NCBI GenBank assembly: GCA_035221665.1
Contig: CM069137.1
Span: forward strand, 32,240,001 to 32,304,000
Origin: Okamejei kenojei
Taxonomy: Eukaryota
Direction of reading: 5' to 3'
DNA length: 64,000 nucleotides
Part shown: positions 500 to 12,400 of the stretch, piece after piece
How positions within the stretch are numbered: position 1 is the stretch's first letter
How the letters are laid out: every line of letters begins with the position of its first letter
Position numbers and translations under genes: made by a program
The notes under the pieces: model-generated
Told to the model about the DNA's origin: nothing
Database searches by the model: none
What the model saw: the letters and a program-made list of their open reading frames with translations, nothing else

Positions 500-1847
500 T
501 GTAAGATTTGAGAAGTTTTCCCTCATGCTACAATCAACAAAACCAAAGAGCTGCATTTTGGACATTTTTTATACGGGACTGGGACTGAGAGAGAGAAAAG
601 CTGCGGTCAGTTTTAACAAGGGATGTCACAATTAGTGGGGCCCAAGATGGCCGCGGGACCTCGTGACCAGCCACAAAAGCGAAACCCCACAGCCCAGTCT
701 CTGGGTTTCTGCAAAGTCACAGCCTGAACAATAGATGGATATTGGCCGTGCAGAAACCCCTGAAACCAGGTGGAAGTCCAGACACTGGGGCGCTGACATC
801 AGCAGACATCACAATGCCCCAAGTCGACCTACATAGTTAATCTCGTTAAGGGGAGCACAATAGCCCATAGAAACCTACCTGGCCGGTGATGGGAAAACCA
901 GTTAAACCCATCACCTCTTATCGAGAAACAAATTAACAGACCGTCTAGCCATCACCGGTACTCCCGGACATAACGTAGAACAAAGAGAGAGCTCGAAAAC
1001 CCATCTTGTAAGCAAAGAGATCCCGAGATCTGGCGGGAGATGGGACGGGTCAGGATTAGAATAACTGGCCACGATTTTTGGGTTTAAGAAGGGAAAAAGA
1101 AAAAGGAGGGAGAGACAATAGGAGTCACTGAACGAATCTGGAGACTTGCAGAGAGAGAGAGGACACAGGACAGCGCTTAAAAGTACACGGTGTCTAGTGT
1201 GACACACACTCCGGCTGGAGTCCCCGCCACGTGGAAAGAAAAGGAATGCAGTAGGACCCCTGGGCGAGGTGAACCCCTGGGACCACCCAAAAGACCGAGA
1301 CGACCGCCGACGACCCTTCCACAGCCACCTAATCGGAGGAAGCAGCACGACCAGCCAGTAACTTCAGTAATCGCCCCATGGTGAGCATGTACCCCGATCC
1401 TGCACATCCTGGACATAGTTTAGTGTAGAGGGGAGGGGGTTATATTAACGTGGGTGTAAGTGTACATGTGTTGGCAAATTTTATGATGAGCCGTACATTC
1501 CCCATCCCACATTCGAGTATGGTATCGTAGTTATTGCGTCTATGATCCCGAAACAGGAACTGTAATTATGCATATGCCTTATAGAACTGTGTCAAAGTAT
1601 TCGTGTATCGTAGTCCCAACCGCTAAATAAAAGTTATTTTCCTGTTTAAACCCTGATCTTCAAATCTGGTCTGGTTGAACTTTCTGCACTATCAACGCTC
1701 CTGCAACTAAGTCCAGTGTCCAGAACCGTAGGGGGTGAGTGGGTCGAGCCACTCACGGGGAACCAGTGTGCGCGGCCTGGTTGAGGGACCAGAGCAAACC
1801 ACAGGGACCATAGGTCGGGCGAAAGCTCGATGCAGAAAACCCTTACA
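500..1847 (+). repeat. 5' LTR (1348 bp)
   Basis: Terminal inverted repeats TGTAAG...CTTACA. Followed 5 nt later by the PBS. The first ~375 bp match 8734-9109 at about 95% by eye. AATAAA at 1626-1631. Confidence 0.88.
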
Positions 1848-1851
1848 GATT

Positions 1852-3616
1852 ATGGCGATCACGAAGGGACGCTGGCAGCAGGACAATAGGGTGCCAGAAA
1901 AGGAGTTGAAGACTAGGGACGTAGTGGATGAGCGCATTGCGGACTATGTTTTTAGCAAGGTCAATATTACCAAACAGTGGATTTGTGATTTATTGGAGGA
2001 CAAGCGCCCACTGGATGCAGCGATCCGGTGGACGGCCAACAAAGCCCATAAGAAATCTGTAGAGAAGGCGGTCTGGCTGACATGTTATAAAAAACAGGTA
2101 CTGCTCTTGGACCGCGTGATTGTGGCGCAGGCAGCCCAGATCAGGGACCTTCTTGAGGAGGTAGAAAAGAAGGCCGCGGGTGGGCACCAGTTGATTGAGG
2201 CTCTGGACTCCTTAAACAAGGAGCGCCGGACCGTGACCAACCGCCACGAGGCCAGGGTAGAACCCATGGAGTGCCAGATCACTGAGGCCATGCTCAGTGA
2301 GGGCAAGCTCAGGGAGCAGTGCGCGTCCCTGAGCCGCCAGCTGGAGGCCCAGGAAGAGAACCTCAAGGGAGTTAGGGCAGCCTTCAAAATGGCTTTGGAG
2401 GACAGGTCGGAAGAGGCCGACCACGGGGCCTGCCTGCAGGAGATAGAGGGTCTGCGGAGTGCTTTAAATAAAGCAAGCGGGCTGGTCTACCTAATGAACC
2501 CCCCAGCGAACCAGTCGCTAGCGGTTGTGAAGGTCCCGGTTCCAGCCCTCAGAAAGACCATGGTGGCTTCGGCCCCCAAACTCCACGTCCCCCCTTGCTA
2601 CGAGGCATCCTGGGAAAGGGGTAGTGTAGGGGAGAGAGGCGGGGGAGCTCCCAGTCGAGGACTCGGCACCGGCGCCCATGTGCCCGGTCCTGGAAACCAG
2701 ACGGGGACCCACCGCGCCGAATGGGGACACCGGACCCATTCAAAGCGAGATCGTGGTGCCCCACAACTCCCAGCAGTTAAGGGCCATGATCAGGCATGTA
2801 AAGAAATTGTCCGAATCAGGGGACCTTTCACTGCATTTTAGGGAGGTTGAGCAAACCGCCGCAATCAACGGTTGCGACGAGGGAGAACGGGCAAAAATGT
2901 TGCTGTTCTCCCTGGACAGCTCAATCCTCCAATGCCTCTCAGATGAGAGTAAAAGAGGGACCAGAACCTACGTTTTCTTACGGGACGAGGTCCTGGAAGT
3001 TTTGGGGATGGACGGTGAGGGTCCATTTGCCCGATTGGGGAAGACCCTCCAGATGGAGGGAGAACCCCCAAAGGTTTTTTGTGGCGCGACTGTGGCCAGT
3101 GTATCAGAGCAGCTGCCCGCATGTCCCCGCGCGGGATGACCTGGTCGGGAATGGGAGAGCCCAGTGGCTCCAATGTTTGGTGTCAAACAGCCTGACGGCC
3201 GTCAGGGTAGCAGGCGAAGGCCTGGTTTGATCCCACAAATAGCACGGAGGAGGCGGTTTTGGACCGTCTCACCGTAGGGTATAGAAACACCCGGAGCACG
3301 TCTACCCGATTCGTAAAAGGGAAGGTGCATGTGGCGGACGCTACTGCACCGGCCCAAAAGGAGTGGCGACAGGGGGGTAGCCCTACCGCACAGTCCAAGT
3401 GTTTCAGGTGCGGTAAGGTGGGGCACTGGCGGAAGGATCCACACCAAGGAAGATAGGGTTGGCACCACCCTGCGCGCCGATATCCCAGTCAAGCCCGAGA
3501 TTATCGAATCGATGATCGAGGTGATGCGGTCCCTCATGGCCGCACAGGGGAAGGTGGCAGTCGCTTCCGGCTCCCCGGGTGCGGGGGGAGGGAGGGCACT
3601 GGACATTCCCCAATGA
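1852..3616 (+). pseudogene. gag: gag: N-terminal coiled coil, capsid-like region, zinc knuckle; frameshifted
   Basis: ORFs 1735-2841, 2678-3139, 2847-3230, 3259-3456 and 3329-3616 tile the region. MHR-like QMEGEPPKVF..RL. Knuckle CFRCGKVGHWRKD(P). Ends at TGA 3614-3616. Confidence 0.8.
1853..1870 (+). promoter_or_regulatory. Primer-binding site, tRNA-Arg(UCG)-like
   Basis: TGGCGATCACGAAGGGAC is complementary (one G:U) to the recalled vertebrate tRNA-Arg(UCG) 3' end ...GTCCCTTCGTGGTCG-CCA. Confidence 0.75.
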
Positions 3617-5720
3617 CATCAGCCCGCCTATCTGTGTCCGCTCCACTACGATGCATGCAAGAGGCGGCTTGTGGTGATGGTAGTGGAGAGGCAAAGGGGC
3701 AGTTACCTGGTGGACACGGGGGCTTCATGCCGAAACCCGAAAAAGGCACGGATCGGTCTGTCAGAAGTTAAATTCTTGGGTCTGACCATCCGCGCTGGGG
3801 AAAGGGCCATAGATAAGGCTAGGAGGGAGTCAGTACAGGAGTTGCCGATTCCCTGCACAGTAAGGGGTGTGAGGTCTTTTCTGGGATTGACCGGGTATTG
3901 CAGGGACTTCATCGAGGACTACGCGGCCACCGCAGCCACCGCAGCCCCGCTACTCCGACTCCGACACAAGGGAGTGGAGTGGTCTTGGGATGTGGGTTGC
4001 CTCAAGTTAAAAGGGGATCTGCGAACCGCACCAGCCTTAGGAGCCATAGATAGAGAGAAAGGGTTTTTTCTGGAGGTGGCAGCCAGTGGGGACAGCCTGA
4101 GTGCTGTGCTGCTGCAGGAGGGCACGGCAGGCTGCGACCAGCGGTGTACTCCTCCAGGGTGCTCACCGATGTGGAGAGGAGTTTCTCCAATTGCGAGAGG
4201 CACCTTTTAGCCACGCATTGGGCAGCAAAGCGGTTGTTAATCTTCACAGGGACCTCTCCCATCACTCTCCTCACCCACCACACACCCACCCAGATGCTTC
4301 TGGATGGAAGGATCAAGGTTGGGACTGTCAGCAGCGCCCGCATCGCGAGCTGGACCCTCCTCCTTTCACAGATGGATCTGAAGGTTGAGGGCCTGTGCGA
4401 GCCCAAGCTCGCGGCCAATTTGGTATATCCCGGAATGGCCCATCGGTGTTCCATGGAGGGGGTTTGGGACGTCGACATAGGTTTACGGGCTGGGATCCAT
4501 CCCACAGGCCGGGAGATCTAGGTGGACGGCTCCAGCACGGTGTCAGCTGGCGAACGACTCACGGGGTGTGGAGTTTATGACCCCGAGGCAGGCATTGCCT
4601 TGGCGGTTCAGCTCCCCAGCACCATGAGAGCGCAGCAGGCCGAGCTGTCCACAGTGGCATACGTCGTTACCCACCCAGAGATGTTCCCAACCCCGTACAC
4701 GATCTGCTCGGACAGCATGTTCACCTGCAACTCGTGTACCGAGTACCTGGCCATCTGGTCCCATCGCGGATACACTTCCTCACGGAAGGCTTTTAACAGT
4801 TTAGCCCCTGCTAGAGCAGATCTTGGCCGCAGTAGGGGAGAGAGGGGAGGTCTTCATTCACAAGGTGAAGCCCATTCCGCCACAGAGCAACAGGCGGACG
4901 CCCTGGGGTGGGAGGATAGCAGCGACCAACATCGGGCGGACGCCTGAGGACTGTCCAAGCTCAGGATCCTGTTTTAAAAGCCATCCTCAGAGCGCTTAGT
5001 AAGGGCGAGCAGGTAGAGGGTCTCTACAGAAAGGCGGCCCTCTCCGTAAAAGAAGGCATGCTCTTCCATGCCGAACAGTGGGTTGTGCCAAAGCAGCATA
5101 GGAGGGAGTTGCTCCAGCTGGCACACGAGGGTCCAGGGGCAGGGCACCCCAGACCGGAGGTTACGTGGCAGTGGAAAGAGCAGGCGGGATGGTGGCCGGG
5201 GCTTAGGGACGATGTCCATGAGTTCTGCGCCAGCTGCCTCGTCTGTGCTGCCAATAACCCAGAAAAGGAAAGCGCCCATGGGACACGTCAGGAGAGTGGA
5301 GGGACCTTGGCAGTTGATCCAGATTGACTACATCGGGCCCTTGCCCACCACCCAAGGAGGCTATAAGTACTGCCTCGTCCTGATAGATGTGTTCTCTAAG
5401 TGGGTGGAGGCTTTCCCCTGTAAGACAGCTCCGGCACTGGGTACTGCCAAGATCCTGGTCCGGGAGGTGTTCTCACGGTGGGGGCTCCCTCGGTTTGTGG
5501 AGTCTGACCAAGGGAGTCACTATAGTGAGAGGTAGGAGAGGCAGGAGCGAGAGGTAGGAGAATTAGTAATGGTTCGGAACTACGCTAGCGTAGGTAGTTT
5601 AGAACCACTCTACATTGGGCCCTACAGCGTTGTAGATAGAGCCAGCCCCATGGTCTACGCCGTGAAGATGCCCCGGCGGGTTAAATGGTTTCACATTAAC
5701 CAGTGCAAATCATGTAAGCC
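3617..5720 (+). pseudogene. pol: pol: protease fragment, RT thumb, RNase H-like tether, RNase H, integrase; with deletions
   Basis: YLVDTGAS is fused by a deletion (YxDD core lost) to NPKKARIG..VKFLG..VRSFLGLTGYCRDFI. Then LEVAAS..YSSRVLTDVERSFSNCERHLLA, VDGSS..AQQAEL..SDS, the IN zinc finger H..GH..CASC..C, IDYIGPLP..DVFSKWVEAFP..SDQGSH and GPY. Confidence 0.9.
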
Positions 5721-6393
5721 TGGAGCACAGGGGTCAACCACAGAGGCAGGTCACGCGGGCAGGCAAGGTTGCCTGCGTGAGGGGGGGGGGACATTCTCCA
5801 GGAATGGAGAGTCTCGCGTTTTGGGTGGGATTCAGATGAGGAAGAGCCTGATCAGCTCGACCAGGGGCTGGACCCCATTACGGAGGAGGAGGAGTCGGAG
5901 GGGGACGACAGCAACGTTCTCGACTCAAGCACCAGAAAGGCGGGGGTAGCGGGCGGAGGCTCACCACCTGTAGGTACTGGCAGGGTGAGGCCGGATGCCG
6001 TGAGAATACCCAGCACCGGGGGGGGCAGAGCTGGATGAGGAGGGGCCAGGTTCGGCAGCTGCGGGAGGTACCCGAGCTGTGACATGGCAGGAACCGGTCC
6101 TCAGCCAGGCTGTCCAGGGGGCAGTGTCTAAGGTGACTCTCCGTAGGCCTAATAGGGAACCCCAACCTAGAAAGTTTTTGCCAGAGGTCAATCTCGCCCC
6201 GAGGTACGGGAGTTTAGCGTTTCAGAGGAGGTTTCACCCCCGACAAGCAGCGACAGGCGGCGGAGGGTCAAAGGTGGGGGACAGCGTGGTGCAGCCACAG
6301 GAGACGACCCGCTGCAGCCTTGACATGGATTAGCTGAGCCGCCCTTGGAAGGTGGCACTGTATTATAGTGTAGATAAGGATAAGGATAGGTAA

Positions 6394-8241
6394 TATGGAT
6401 AAGTTTGGGGGAATAGTTTTAGACAAAGTTGATGCGTCCAGGATGCAGATGTGGGGTGCGGGTTGAGGGTCAAGAGGCCCGCCCGCAGAGGCGTTTAACA
6501 AAGCCCAGCGCTCCCCAAGAGGCTGGCTATACCATATTTTATCTGTTTTCTGGAGCGGAAGGAGGCTCCCAGGCTTGTGGGGTCCCCCTTCCCCCGATCC
6601 CGGCAAACGCCACTGAACTCATCACACGACCGCGCACAACCTCTCCCACAGTTCCGCTGGCAGTAGCACAGGAGGGCGAGTGCCCTAAAACCACTAAGGG
6701 GCCCGGGAATGGCCTGGTACTGATACCAACTGACCAGGTATTGTACCGGGGGTGCACTACGCGGTGGCCTCGGTGATCTTAAACCTCACCGAGGTGTGGT
6801 TGCCGGAGTGGTGCCCCAGGGAAACTGAAAGACTGTACCAGGTGCTACTGATTAACATGTTCCGGCAATTTTACGAGTTCGACCTTGCCAGCGTGGACAA
6901 GGAGAGCTTATATCACCAAGAGCCGGAGGACTGGGGTCGGACAGGGAGGCAAAAGAGGGGTGTAGTGAATGATGTGTTTACGGGCTTTAACACCCGGACA
7001 TCTGTGGTCAACGCTTTAGATAACATGGAGCTGCAGACACAGATTAACGGGTTAAAGTCGCAGTTGAAAGGCATCCTCACGGACGGGAACAAGGTCGCCG
7101 GGTCCGAGCTGCACGAGGACCAGGCGATGACACTACACCTGTGCAAGATCATCGCTGAGCTGGAAAGGCATGCCGGCGCAGTGAACGCAATGATTAGGGA
7201 AGATCGGAACGTGTCCGAATCAGGCAGCGCATAAAATGAGGTGTGCGTACTGTACGGGGCGGGATTGCTGGTCGAGGGCCACAGCAACCTCGAGGACCTG
7301 AAACAAGGATCGGTCCCATCCTGGATCAGTAATAAACACCTACAAGCGCTGCTACCCTTCCAGAACACCTCACCCCGTGCCAGCTCAGGTTAGCGTCGGA
7401 GGCGTACCCTGTTCCCGTAGATTGTGGCCAATCAAACCACACAATCATGGGAATAGTGGTGCGGATGCCGTTGTTGGGCAAGACGACAAAGCCCACACCA
7501 GTGTACAGGGTGGAGAGCATTGGAGTCATTCAGGGGGGAGCCCATATTCGCTATGCAGCGGTCCCACCGTACGTCATCCGCTGGGAGCAGTCGATGACGG
7601 GTACTGACCTCTCGGTGTGTCGGAGCCGGGGAGCATATATTATATTGTGTCCTCAGCACTTGAATGTCCTTTTGAAACAGCAGTGCGGGTTCAGGACTGT
7701 TGGCGCGAAGCCTATGAATTGTACCATGGAGGCAATGGCACAGGGCCATGTGCCGCCACAGGTGGCATACATAGGGGGTGGCACCTATTGTGTTACCACT
7801 GCCGCGCAGCACTATCGACACGGGCAGCATGGTTCGTGTCCGGTAAGGGACAGCAGCTTCTGTTTTAAACCCAGGGCAGAGGTTCAAGTGGCACAGCAGC
7901 GAATTGTCCCCATTCCTGAACCCTCCACGGTTCACCTAACTGTACAGAAAAACTTCACCGACCTTCAGCGATTTGTAGCGCATTTCGGGTACGCCATTCC
8001 CCCTCTCCCCGAACATCTCACCACCCTGTTAAAGGCAGTCGCCGTATCACAAAGGCACTTTTACGCCCTGGAGCAAAACACAAGAGAGATAGTGTCCGAG
8101 ATATTGGACATTGTGGTTCCAGCATGGTGGGACCTGGTCACCACTATCGAGGTCCCGTCTTGGGTTAGGATAGCGTCACACGCATTAGTTATTGTACAAG
8201 CAGGAATAGTGTTATATTTACTATGTGTGAAATATAAATGA
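6394..8241 (+). pseudogene. env: env: class I fusion glycoprotein with Mononegavirales F-like layout
   Basis: ORFs 6429-6776, 6752-7234 and 7447-8241. Early furin site RQKR at 6947-6958, followed by a fusion peptide and heptad repeat, a Cys-rich mid-domain (PPYVI..DLSVC..LCP..C..CV), a second heptad and a TM segment (ALVIVQAGIVLYLLCV). Start is approximate. Confidence 0.85.
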
Positions 8242-8733
8242 GGGCAGCGCCTCAATGACCGGATAAATAAAGGAGAATGGAGAGACCGTTACGTGCGGGT
8301 GGGCGAGCAGGATCCAGCCGCAAGCTGCTAGGAGGACAGGCCCCCTCCACACCGAGTGAACTGTGTTTTGCCCATTTCAAAATTTTTTTTTGAAAATTGT
8401 TTTGAAAGAATGCACGAAAATGTATCATTTTGCTGTGGTTTTGTTTTCATGTCCTACATTAAAGCTTACACCAGCAGGAGGATGGCAGAGGCATCGGCCT
8501 GGGGCAAGGTGTAAGTGTATAAGTAGACACAAAATGCAAATGTTAGTAATATAGTTTTGCCCGGGACACGGACAGTATGGGTCAGCCTAAAAGATGGGGA
8601 CTGTATGTTCGTAATGGGGCACTAGTTAGTTAAAACCTCAGGGGTCTGGATGTGGGGAATCGGGAAAACATTGCTCAACCACATAATTTAATTGATTCGA
8701 TAAGCTGGGGTTATGCAAATCAACAGGAGCGAC

Positions 8734-9375
8734 TGTAAGATTTGAGAAGTTTACCCTCATGCAACAATCAACAAAACCAAAGAGCTGCATTTTGGACATT
8801 TTTTTAATACGGGACTGGGACTGAGAGAGAAAAGCTGCAGTCAGTTTTAACAAGGGATGTCACAATCAGTGGGGCCAAAGATGGCCACGGGACCTCATGA
8901 CCAGCCACAAAAGCGAAACCCCACAGCCCAGTTTCTGGGTTTCTGCAAAGTCACGGCCTGAACAATAGGTGGATATTGGCCGTGCAGAAACCCCTGAAAC
9001 CAGGTCAAAGTCCAGACACTGGGGTGCTGACATCAGCAGGCATCACAATGCTCCAAGCCGACCTACATAGTTAATCTCGTTAAGGGAGCACAATAGCCCA
9101 TAGAAACCTGTTAAAGAAGGAACTGCAGATGCTGGAGAATCGAGGGTACACCAAGGGCTGGAGAAACTCAGCGGGTGCAGCAGCATCTAAGGAGCGAAGG
9201 AGATAGGCGACGTTTCGGGTCGAGACCCTTCTTCAGACTCTTCGGGTCGAGACCCTTCTTCAGACCATAGAAGCCTACCTGGCTGGTGATGAGAAAACCA
9301 GTTAAACCCATCACCTCTTATCGAGAAACAAATCCACAGCCACCTAATCAGTAACATGTACCCCGAGATCCTGGT
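8734..9375 (+). repeat. 3' LTR, interrupted and truncated
   Basis: Matches 5' LTR 500-~933, with an insertion at 9110-9264, then short pieces matching ~1319-1335 and ~1387-1398. R/U5 are lost. Confidence 0.85.
9110..9264 (-). mobile_element. Short Penelope pseudo-LTR-derived insertion with tandem hammerhead-like cores
   Basis: Flanked by the 12-bp duplication CCATAGAA(A/G)CCT (9098-9109 and 9265-9276). Minus strand reads CTGAAGA-AGGGTCTCGACCC-GAA twice. Confidence 0.75.
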
Positions 9376-10706: not shown

Positions 10707-12400
10707 TTTTACTTCGGAGTCACGAGAGTGACTACATGAAGAAGCCCCGCCAGGCGCATGCGCGCCATTACGTCCGCGTATGTCGCACTGAACGGGCTGG
10801 AGGGCACAGCTCCACCATTTCTTGGTGCATCCGGTTACATGAGAAAGTCACCCTTTACATGACCATATTAATTATTGGTCTGCGGGTTCTGACCAGACAT
10901 TTCCAAAGACTTGGATTGTCGAACAGGGCCATGGTGGTTCACACTGCAAGCTGGCGAAATAGCACTCAAAAAACAATATATGGTTCACATAAAGAAATGG
11001 AAACTGTTTCTGTGTACAATCCTATATGTCTTATCATAATGCAAGCATATGTGATGTGTTGGAGTTCCTTGCTAAGTTGCATTTTGATGAGCACCTGCGT
11101 TATAATGACATTACCAGCACTCGGAGTGCGTTGTCCTCTTATTGCGAGCAGTCTTCAGAACAACATCCTATCGAGTCTCATCCGTTAGTATCCCGATTTA
11201 TGAGGAATTTTTAATAAAAACCCTCCGAAACCTCGCTATACAGAAATCTGGGACATCACTCCTGTTCTCACAATGCTTCGGCAATGGGCTCCAATTACTT
11301 AATTATTTACGCAGAGATTAACTCTTGCTGTGGTTATGCTAATAGTGCTGGTTTCAGCACAACGTGTACAAACAACACAATTCTTACGAATACCTTGTAT
11401 GCATTTGTTTGTCAATGACATTAACTTCTATGTTTATGATTTAATCAAACAAAGCAGGCCCGGTCTGGCTGGAATCAAGGTGACGTTTAAAGCCTATCTT
11501 GTTAACCAAATGTTATATGTAGTTACACCATATAACTTAAGCCAATATATTAGGTAACAAGGAGTCTCAGAGGTTCTGAGAGAGGACTGCTCATTAGTCA
11601 CAAAAAGACATATAAAAGAGTGTCAGCACAAACTATTTCTACATGGTTGAAACAGGTTCTCAATTATGCTGGAGTCGACATTCCTGTCTTTAACTCTCAC
11701 TCCACCAGGGCGGCATCAATCTCCGCGGCGAAGGCTCAGGACGTGCCGCTAGACCAAATCTTCGAGGCCGCAGGATGGTCTCGAGAAGCAACATTTTCTC
11801 AATTTTCTGACAAATCTGTACAGACCGTGCCACGGTGTGGGCATGCTGTTTTGGGTTCCATTTAATTCATTTGCTTTGTTTTCTATCATTGTTTGTAATT
11901 TTCCCTGAGACAGAGGGGTTATTCCTGTGTTTATTATTGTTAACAATAGTTATTGAATAATTCAAAGCAATGTTCAATATATTATTTATTCCCTACTGTG
12001 TCAACCGAAGCAGATTGTGGTATGGTGTGCATCTACGGCATGAAAATACAGATCTTTGAAATCTTCACGTAGTCACTCATGTGACTCCAAAGTAAAATAG
12101 TAAGATTAAACGAGAACTTACCAGTTCAAAGTTTGATCCTTATTTTATGAGGAGTGACGTTGAGGGATTACGTGCCCTCCGCTCCCACCCTCATAATCTA
12201 AGAGATCATCTGGTAGTTCTAGTCTTCTACGAGCCTTACTACGTTACTTCGGCTATTTGTTTTCTGTGTTTTCACGCCGCTGCTTTGAAGTATGACGCGC
12301 ATGCGCCAGGCGGGGCTTCTTCACGTAATCCCTCAATGTCACTCCTCATAAAATAAGGATCAAACTTCAAACTGGTAAGTTCTCGTTTAATCTTACTATT
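10707..12400 (+). mobile_element. Internally deleted DIRS1-type retrotransposon (left ITR, YR, ICR, right ITR)
   Basis: Left end TTTTACTTCGGAGTCAC..GCGCATGCGCG. ICR ~12063-12175 is complementary to both termini. Right end ...TTTAATCTTACTATT. No gag or RT. Confidence 0.9.
10910..11865 (+). pseudogene. Tyrosine recombinase (DIRS), degenerate
   Basis: DVLEFLAKLHFD..RSALS..HPLVSRFM, SAQRVQT, QTISTWLK..FNSHSTRAAS..AAGWS. The catalytic Tyr position reads F-S. Several frameshifts. Confidence 0.85.

Follow-up and report, generated by a model that had tools for sequence, protein, structure and literature searches.

A multi-copy endogenous retrovirus family, probably of a skate, that appears to pair a canonical-type RT with a predicted F-type envelope core related to that of lokiretroviruses

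We analyzed a 64,000-nucleotide stretch of DNA (the window) and found that positions 500-9349 form one defective provirus, with the order LTR-PBS-gag-pol-env-LTR. This provirus is a dead member of a multi-copy endogenous retrovirus (ERV) family. We consider it probable (roughly 0.78) that the family combines an RT of the canonical group, likely class III of SnRV-like grade, with a predicted paramyxovirus-F-type Env core that is homologous to the Env of lokiretroviruses (Loki). The assignment to a class III ERV with a Loki-homologous Env is based on RT trees, AU tests, a tRNA-Arg primer site and an Env profile. Judged by the RT position that defines lokiretroviruses, the family falls outside that group, although its Env would work like a Loki or paramyxovirus F envelope.

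Structure of the provirus

The features of the provirus are listed by window coordinates.

500..1847, + strand: 5' LTR, TGTAAG...CTTACA, 1348 nt, with a full-length LTR match in sibling L014
1853..1870, + strand: primer-binding site, tRNA-Arg(TCG), 17/18 matching by comparison with the host tRNA gene
1852..3616, + strand: gag, split over several frames, with an N-terminal coiled-coil region; a CCHC zinc knuckle (zf-CCHC E 3e-5) lies at about 3397-3438, and the stop that closes gag (3614-3616) is in the pol frame
3617..3730, + strand: protease start (DTGA), directly 3' of which about 1.0 kb has been lost, the RT fingers and palm among it
3734..4520, + strand: RT thumb and tether, a degenerate RNase H (RT_RNaseH E 3.8e-10)
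4522..4914, + strand: second RNase H, of retroviral type (RNase_H E 8.6e-8)
4944..5715, + strand: integrase remnant, consisting of the H2C2 zinc domain, the first part of the core, a deletion and the SH3-like tail
6520..6680, + strand: env 5' remnant with a pyrimidine-rich AG (candidate splice acceptor) and, at 6565/6566, the junction of a deletion; neither the leader nor the head domain is present
6681..6958, + strand: F2-like segment, by the fold of a sibling, from a CP..GP motif to the furin site RQKR (6947-6958); frame break near 6750
6959..8331, + strand: F1-like subunit, whose N-terminus is weakly hydrophobic and is followed by a heptad, Cys-rich beta domains, another heptad, a TM (about 8170-8229) and a tail; it is interrupted by stops at 7232 and 8239 and by a frame break near 7369
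8734..9349, + strand: what is left of the 3' LTR after truncation and an internal deletion; a SINE-like repeat has inserted into it (9110-9261)

The loss of the RT palm and fingers amounts to 1034 nt relative to the one sibling measured, and residues 20-366 of a relative have no match in the window copy. Two RNase H domains, the RT_RNaseH tether and a second RNase_H, were found. This dual arrangement is not diagnostic for Loki because it is common to all retroviruses; with the gene order and the RT clade, it belongs to the canonical Retroviridae features that we recovered. The target-site duplication of the window provirus is not readable because the right junction is gone. A sibling provirus has an apparent 4-bp duplication, GTTT (L013:207-210, L014:1674-1677).

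Several other observations concern the locus and its surroundings. At 1852-1870, the start of the primer site shares bases with an ATG that opens gag, with no leader between PBS and gag, and the same arrangement is seen in L013 and L023. Further copies of the SINE-like repeat occur elsewhere in the window. Positions 10990-11865 hold broken frames with HSTR and AAGW motifs, which are reminiscent of the tyrosine recombinases of DIRS- or Crypton-like elements. A 654-residue RT frame, likely from a LINE, lies immediately before the start of the window (L017:3793-5754).

Copies, host and age of the family

Of the 169 candidates from a search with the C-terminal piece of env, 131 were scored; they gave 138 matches, which divide into two subfamilies of about 90% and about 64% identity. 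In all four natural 10-kb stretches tested, the RT motif and the env motifs occur in order on one strand. A cartilaginous-fish host had been thought probable, and the nearest named Env proteins agree with this, as they come from the skate Rhinoraja longicauda (88% over 139 aa). On this indirect evidence, the host is likely a skate. The two LTRs of the window provirus differ by a K2P distance of 0.045 over 372 nt. At the two rates quoted in PMC4422223, this corresponds to an insertion age of about 10-100 million years. We also inspected four sequencing runs from four organisms. In two of them, a contig continues out of the flank into the LTR for 27-28 letters, which is suggestive and falls short of the 31 letters required for a bridge; in the other two, the flank continues into other sequence, as an empty site would.

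The envelope gene in the window copy and its siblings

The window copy retains the series of elements first described from its letters: the furin site RQKR (6947-6958) comes first, then GVVNDVFTGFNT, a helical heptad region, a beta region rich in Cys (10 within 7336-8238), a second heptad and a TM. The absence of a CX6CC/ISD was likewise upheld, as CX6CC is missing from both window env pieces and CX6CC and an ISD-like motif are missing from the sibling Env. The env interval 6394..8241 is not a single ORF. Only 23 codons separate the ATG at 6394 from the stop of its frame, there are frameshifts near 6750 and 7369, stops fall at 7232-7234 and 8239-8241, and homology extends to a stop at 8329-8331.

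The original prediction also described a short N-terminal subunit of about 130 aa and no long SU. The siblings have a longer subunit with a long N-terminal part, and the short appearance is an artefact of a deletion, as the window copy has lost about 595 nt that are carried by 5/5 siblings. All five close siblings covering both sides have extra sequence at window position 6565/6566. Measured between fixed anchors, the missing stretch is 595, 595, 590 and 618 nt long in four of the five (one anchor was not found in the fifth), and it includes a hydrophobic leader. The frame of a second-subfamily sibling has 275 residues ahead of the F-like core and its furin site at residue 365.

Heads of about 150-190 residues occur in six of the eight distant shark and frog homologues listed; one has 22 residues, and a skate gene model has 229. 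The model of the family's head is of low confidence, with a pLDDT of 31. Its Ig-likeness is a hint at most (Ig_3 in 3/9 rows, best E 0.13), and the head gave no alignment with the heads of two relatives. The first 25 residues after the furin site have mean hydropathies of 0.21 and 0.10, versus 1.5 in the Loki locus. This weak hydrophobicity is like that of SnRV and unlike that of Loki.

In the window subfamily, the leader frame lacks an ATG and is preceded by a pyrimidine-rich AG, which suggests a spliced env message. Splicing may not be general because the second subfamily has in-frame methionines. In SnRV, by eye, a short hydrophobic frame ends at a GT donor upstream of gag.

Predicted fold of the Env core

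We modeled a 554-residue core from a natural sibling frame using a 47-row alignment. The model has a mean pLDDT of 71.2 and a pTM of 0.57, with low confidence around the cleavage site and the first heptad. In a Foldseek comparison with the PDB, all listed matches are paramyxovirus or pneumovirus F proteins; the best is hPIV3 (1ztm, E 4.4e-11), and 243 of the 500 listed matches have E ≤ 0.001. The VIA comparison, which is a second look at the same Foldseek matches and not independent of them, gave Z 11.3 and an rmsd of 4.9 over 286 residues, and 50/50 listed rows are F proteins. The F-type architecture proposed from the sequence is thus recovered in the predicted fold of the sibling core, which supports the view that the Env core of the family is a paramyxovirus-F-type fusion protein. 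This predicted fold is shared with the F proteins of hPIV3 (1ztm), henipavirus, RSV and hMPV at 7-16% identity; the family Env differs in its N-terminal head and its retroviral context. Likeness to Mononegavirales F proteins by fold and profile is accompanied by an RXKR site, a coiled coil and a TM.

Pfam F0 (PF00523) matches 0/47 family Env rows, Pfam and PDB sequence searches of the window env pieces returned no family, and the family Env profile has only matches at E 0.03-0.2 in the PDB. The Env of the Loki reference L082 matches PF00523 with E 0.002. Among many insect-virus glycoproteins, the BFVD matches of the core model include the Envs of WEHV1 (4.2e-12), WDSV (8e-9) and feline foamy virus (2.4e-4). 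The best BFVD match, A0A384ZVF2 (E 7.8e-17, 928 aa), could be a closer viral relative. The Atlas yielded one chordate cluster at 0.82, which we treat as a lead only.

Relationships of the envelope

Profile comparisons connect the Env to several retroviral groups. With hhalign, the family Env profile aligns to Loki with a probability of 98.0 over 375 columns, and to WDSV, SnRV and foamy Envs with 95.3, 88.9 and 85.4, respectively. The controls gave 19.9 and 6.4 for gamma Envs (TM region only) and 0.3 for SnRV Pol. HMMER bit scores of the same profile are 54.3 and 54.7 for Loki (E 4e-19), 21.9 for WDSV and 18.5 for SnRV; the foamy Envs score 16.0, 6.5, 3.3 and -4.4 and the gamma Envs 9.8 and 8.3. 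The foamy link is weak by HMMER because 3/4 foamy Envs do no better than the gamma controls. Pairwise BLAST between the family and SnRV Envs was not significant. The matches to SnRV (L057:6131-9532) and the WDSV-type reference (L095:5962-9648) involve the C-terminal halves of their Envs.

The analysis addressed whether the Env would match gamma TM instead of F proteins. It matched F proteins, and a gamma-type Env was rejected, given the low probabilities of the gamma profile alignments and the lack of CX6CC or ISD. The original prediction had treated Loki as the only retroviral group with an F-type layout. This does not hold, as foamy Env is F-like (PMC11468914) and the SnRV and walleye-virus Envs match as well.

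A search of a 1.84-billion library returned 45 Env homologues. Names were looked up for 25 of them, and those that carry one belong to several sharks and frogs, one sawshark and one skate. The family lies apart from the two Loki rows in the Env tree, where the shark and frog homologues are nearer; deep branches are weak and there are long-branch warnings. Long shark and frog homologues (P0054, P0061, P0071, P0080) have differing N-terminal heads; one is titled 'Ig-like domain-containing' and one has a weak V-set match. Mantella aurantiaca contributes 16 near-identical members. Fragments of the family Env are fused into predicted shark gene models, namely Niban-like, cadherin-like (by eye) and fbxo15 (P0006, P0055, P0079), and represent either annotation artefacts or exonisation. 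No related loci were found in the viral contigs searched.

Placement of the RT

The RT placement relies on siblings because the RT palm of the window copy is deleted. The sibling RT motif is LPQGFHNSP, versus CPFGY.NSP in Loki. Sibling RTs are 41.8% identical to SnRV, the nearest named reference, and 43-45% identical to coelacanth and other elements; the values are lower for Loki (33-34%) and for foamy viruses (31-34%). We built three RT trees, using 32 of 46 rows, 28 of 49 rows, and 31 rows with class II added; the rows dropped were redundant foamy, gypsy, epsilon-like and sibling sequences, and the trees are without Odin, FLERVs, ERV-L/S, ERV4 and CmiERV-I. With these Loki, foamy and gypsy references, the comparison suggested at the outset placed the sibling RT inside the canonical retroviruses. 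All three trees have Loki as the sister outside, with support of 100/97, 99/97 and 95/94. The clade holding the family includes SnRV, foamy and gamma/epsilon viruses, and class II in the third tree. AU tests rejected a grouping of the family with Loki (p 0.004 and 0.003). The proposed membership of the lokiretroviruses is contradicted by these results, and a sister position to them is not supported. The Gypsy and chance readings were also rejected.

Within the canonical group, the position is less certain. Grouping with SnRV is borderline rejected by AU (p 0.045 and 0.056), and the family is not sister to SnRV in the free trees; it falls in a weakly resolved basal grade near coelacanth and turtle elements. 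Coelacanth and turtles are hosts with described SnRV-like ERVs (PMC4977317). The integrase is more similar to Loki (43.8% identity, 217 bits) than to SnRV (35.7%, 129 bits), and the integrase tree, from which CGIN1 is absent, has no resolved placement.

The SnRV reference (L057) was identified by its length of 10,688 nt (PMC12193657) and its RT letters. The Loki references (L071, L082, L085) match the Loki RTs of Dataset S2 (PMC7947760) by eye, and the labels of the foamy (12 records), WDSV-type, gamma-type and class II references rest on motifs. A metagenome scan gave 23 stretches, of which three are Loki-type and one is gypsy-type. The Loki-type elements L071, L082 and L085 have long open frames and come from the metagenome collection; they are probably host-fish DNA.

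Comparison with SnRV, Loki and foamy viruses

The primer site of the window provirus matches the host tRNA-Arg(TCG) gene, that of SnRV matches tRNA-Arg(ACG) and that of one Loki locus matches tRNA-Met. SnRV is said, in a description attributed to Hart in 1996, to have a tRNA-Arg primer and a coiled-coil Gag. In the window family, SnRV and the Loki locus alike, gag ends with a stop in frame with pol. The Gags of the family and SnRV match zf-CCHC, and the Loki Gag tested does not.

The family has the canonical-type RT and tRNA-Arg primer of the SnRV-like group or clade Huo, which comprises SnRV, CmiERV lineage I of the elephant shark (PMC4422223) and clade Huo (PMC6001957); CmiERV-I is likened by description only, its sequence being outside the comparison. 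Family and SnRV also share a coiled-coil Gag with one CCHC, the in-frame gag/pol stop and an Env whose homologous F-like core follows a long N-terminal part. They differ in the tRNA-Arg isoacceptor (TCG in the family, ACG in SnRV), a sister relation of the two is borderline rejected by AU (p about 0.05), and the family has an integrase and Env core nearer to Loki and a shorter head without detected likeness to the SnRV head. With Loki (PMC7947760, PMC9040795), the family has in common the dual RNase H, an RXKR-cleaved F-type Env and a similar integrase. It differs in having an RT outside the Loki clade and tRNA-Arg instead of tRNA-Met; about 270 residues of additional head precede its Env core, whereas the Loki core begins near the signal peptide, and no hydrophobic fusion peptide stands directly after the cut. 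Foamy Env (PMC11468914) is similar in that a canonical retrovirus there, too, carries an F-like fusion core (class Ib). In foamy viruses, however, the RBD is inserted between the subunits (PMC11468914), whereas the extra domain of the family is N-terminal, and the RT does not group with the mammalian-type foamy rows of the trees.

In the ancestral virus, Pol would have been produced by read-through of the in-frame gag stop, and Env probably from a spliced message with a furin cut at RQKR. This cut may have yielded an N-terminal subunit, made up of the head of about 270 residues and the F2-like segment, alongside an F1-like subunit anchored in the membrane, whose refolding to a six-helix bundle would fuse the membranes. 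The head is likely an attachment module, a task that lies on a separate protein in paramyxoviruses.

Origin of the F-type envelope

The family Env most likely resembles that of Loki because both were inherited from an F-type Env in the ancestor shared by Loki and canonical retroviruses. The counterpoint is that an env and integrase swap with Loki would generate the same pattern. We tentatively propose, at a little under even odds, that the shark, skate and frog Env lineage bridges Loki and canonical retroviruses: it would have branched early among the canonical retroviruses and retained the F-type Env and the integrase of the ancestor. In that case, retroviral envelopes would have begun as a paramyxovirus-F-type protein, which would have been kept in Loki, this family, SnRV, the walleye epsilonretroviruses and foamy viruses, with the gamma- and HIV-type Envs as later replacements.

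Somewhat unlikely in our estimate is a recombinant origin, in which a class III retrovirus took env, and perhaps integrase, from a lokiretrovirus and the F-type Env is a later swap. Env and integrase are both nearest to Loki among the references, and domain replacement is documented in retroviruses (PMC7947760). However, the Env tree does not nest the family beside the two Loki rows and has the shark and frog homologues nearer (its deep branches are weak), and the segment after the furin site has a hydropathy of 0.21 compared with 1.5 in Loki. The Envs of SnRV, WDSV/WEHV and foamy viruses are F-like too, so a single swap provides no explanation. A search of the host genome for the Loki RT motif gave 0 exact matches, which does not imply absence.

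A foamy-like ERV of cartilaginous fish is very improbable, although foamy Env matches weakly and cartilaginous-fish foamy ERVs are cited in print (PMC11468914). The family RT is apart from the mammalian-type foamy rows in all three trees (fish FLERVs are absent from these), its Gag has a CCHC knuckle with pol in frame, and its furin site follows the F2-like segment without an inserted RBD. Foamy viruses are not known to have a CCHC knuckle in Gag or an in-frame pol. Least probable of all is a true lokiretrovirus that extends the lineage to Chondrichthyes, for which the dual RNase H, the F-type Env, the top Env and integrase similarity to the Loki locus and the shared in-frame gag/pol stop can be cited, but whose required RT position is contradicted by three trees and two AU tests. 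The family also departs from Loki in its RT motif, in the tRNA of its primer site, in the character of the fusion peptide and in the head of Env, and its Gag, like that of SnRV, matches zf-CCHC, which the Loki Gag tested does not.

Implications for retroviral envelopes

Part of this picture was already known. Class III ERVs have been reported from cartilaginous fish (PMC4422223, PMC11089739), SnRV-related ERVs from the elephant shark (PMC4422223), and clade III makes up the majority of chondrichthyan ERV RT loci in print. A resemblance of foamy Env to F has been described (PMC11468914), and the available text of a published screen has Loki in 0/6 chondrichthyan genomes (PMC7947760). For the Env link between Loki and canonical retroviruses, we met no precedent in the texts examined. 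We found no F-type or Loki-homologous Env for class III ERVs, SnRV or the walleye viruses in the available text of PMC12440569, PMC12583693, PMC11521997, PMC10699275, PMC13709493, bioRxiv 2023.10.26.564294 and bioRxiv 2024.03.17.585361; Hart 1996, Wang, Chen and Cui 2023, Calcraft 2024, Repbase, the bioRxiv supplements and the rest of the Loki supplement were beyond the scope of this search.

Wang and Han 2022 preferred independent origins of Loki and canonical retroviruses since their Envs 'did not share detectable similarities' (PMC9040795). A family with a canonical RT and a Loki-similar Env conflicts with this premise, as stated in the available text. The window locus itself is a dead copy, and the finding gains its weight from the Env similarity that ties Loki to canonical retroviruses. 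Our results suggest that the F-type envelope is more widespread among retroviruses than published. With an Env profile that links Loki, SnRV and WDSV, the origin of the retroviral envelope becomes testable by sequence and structure trees.
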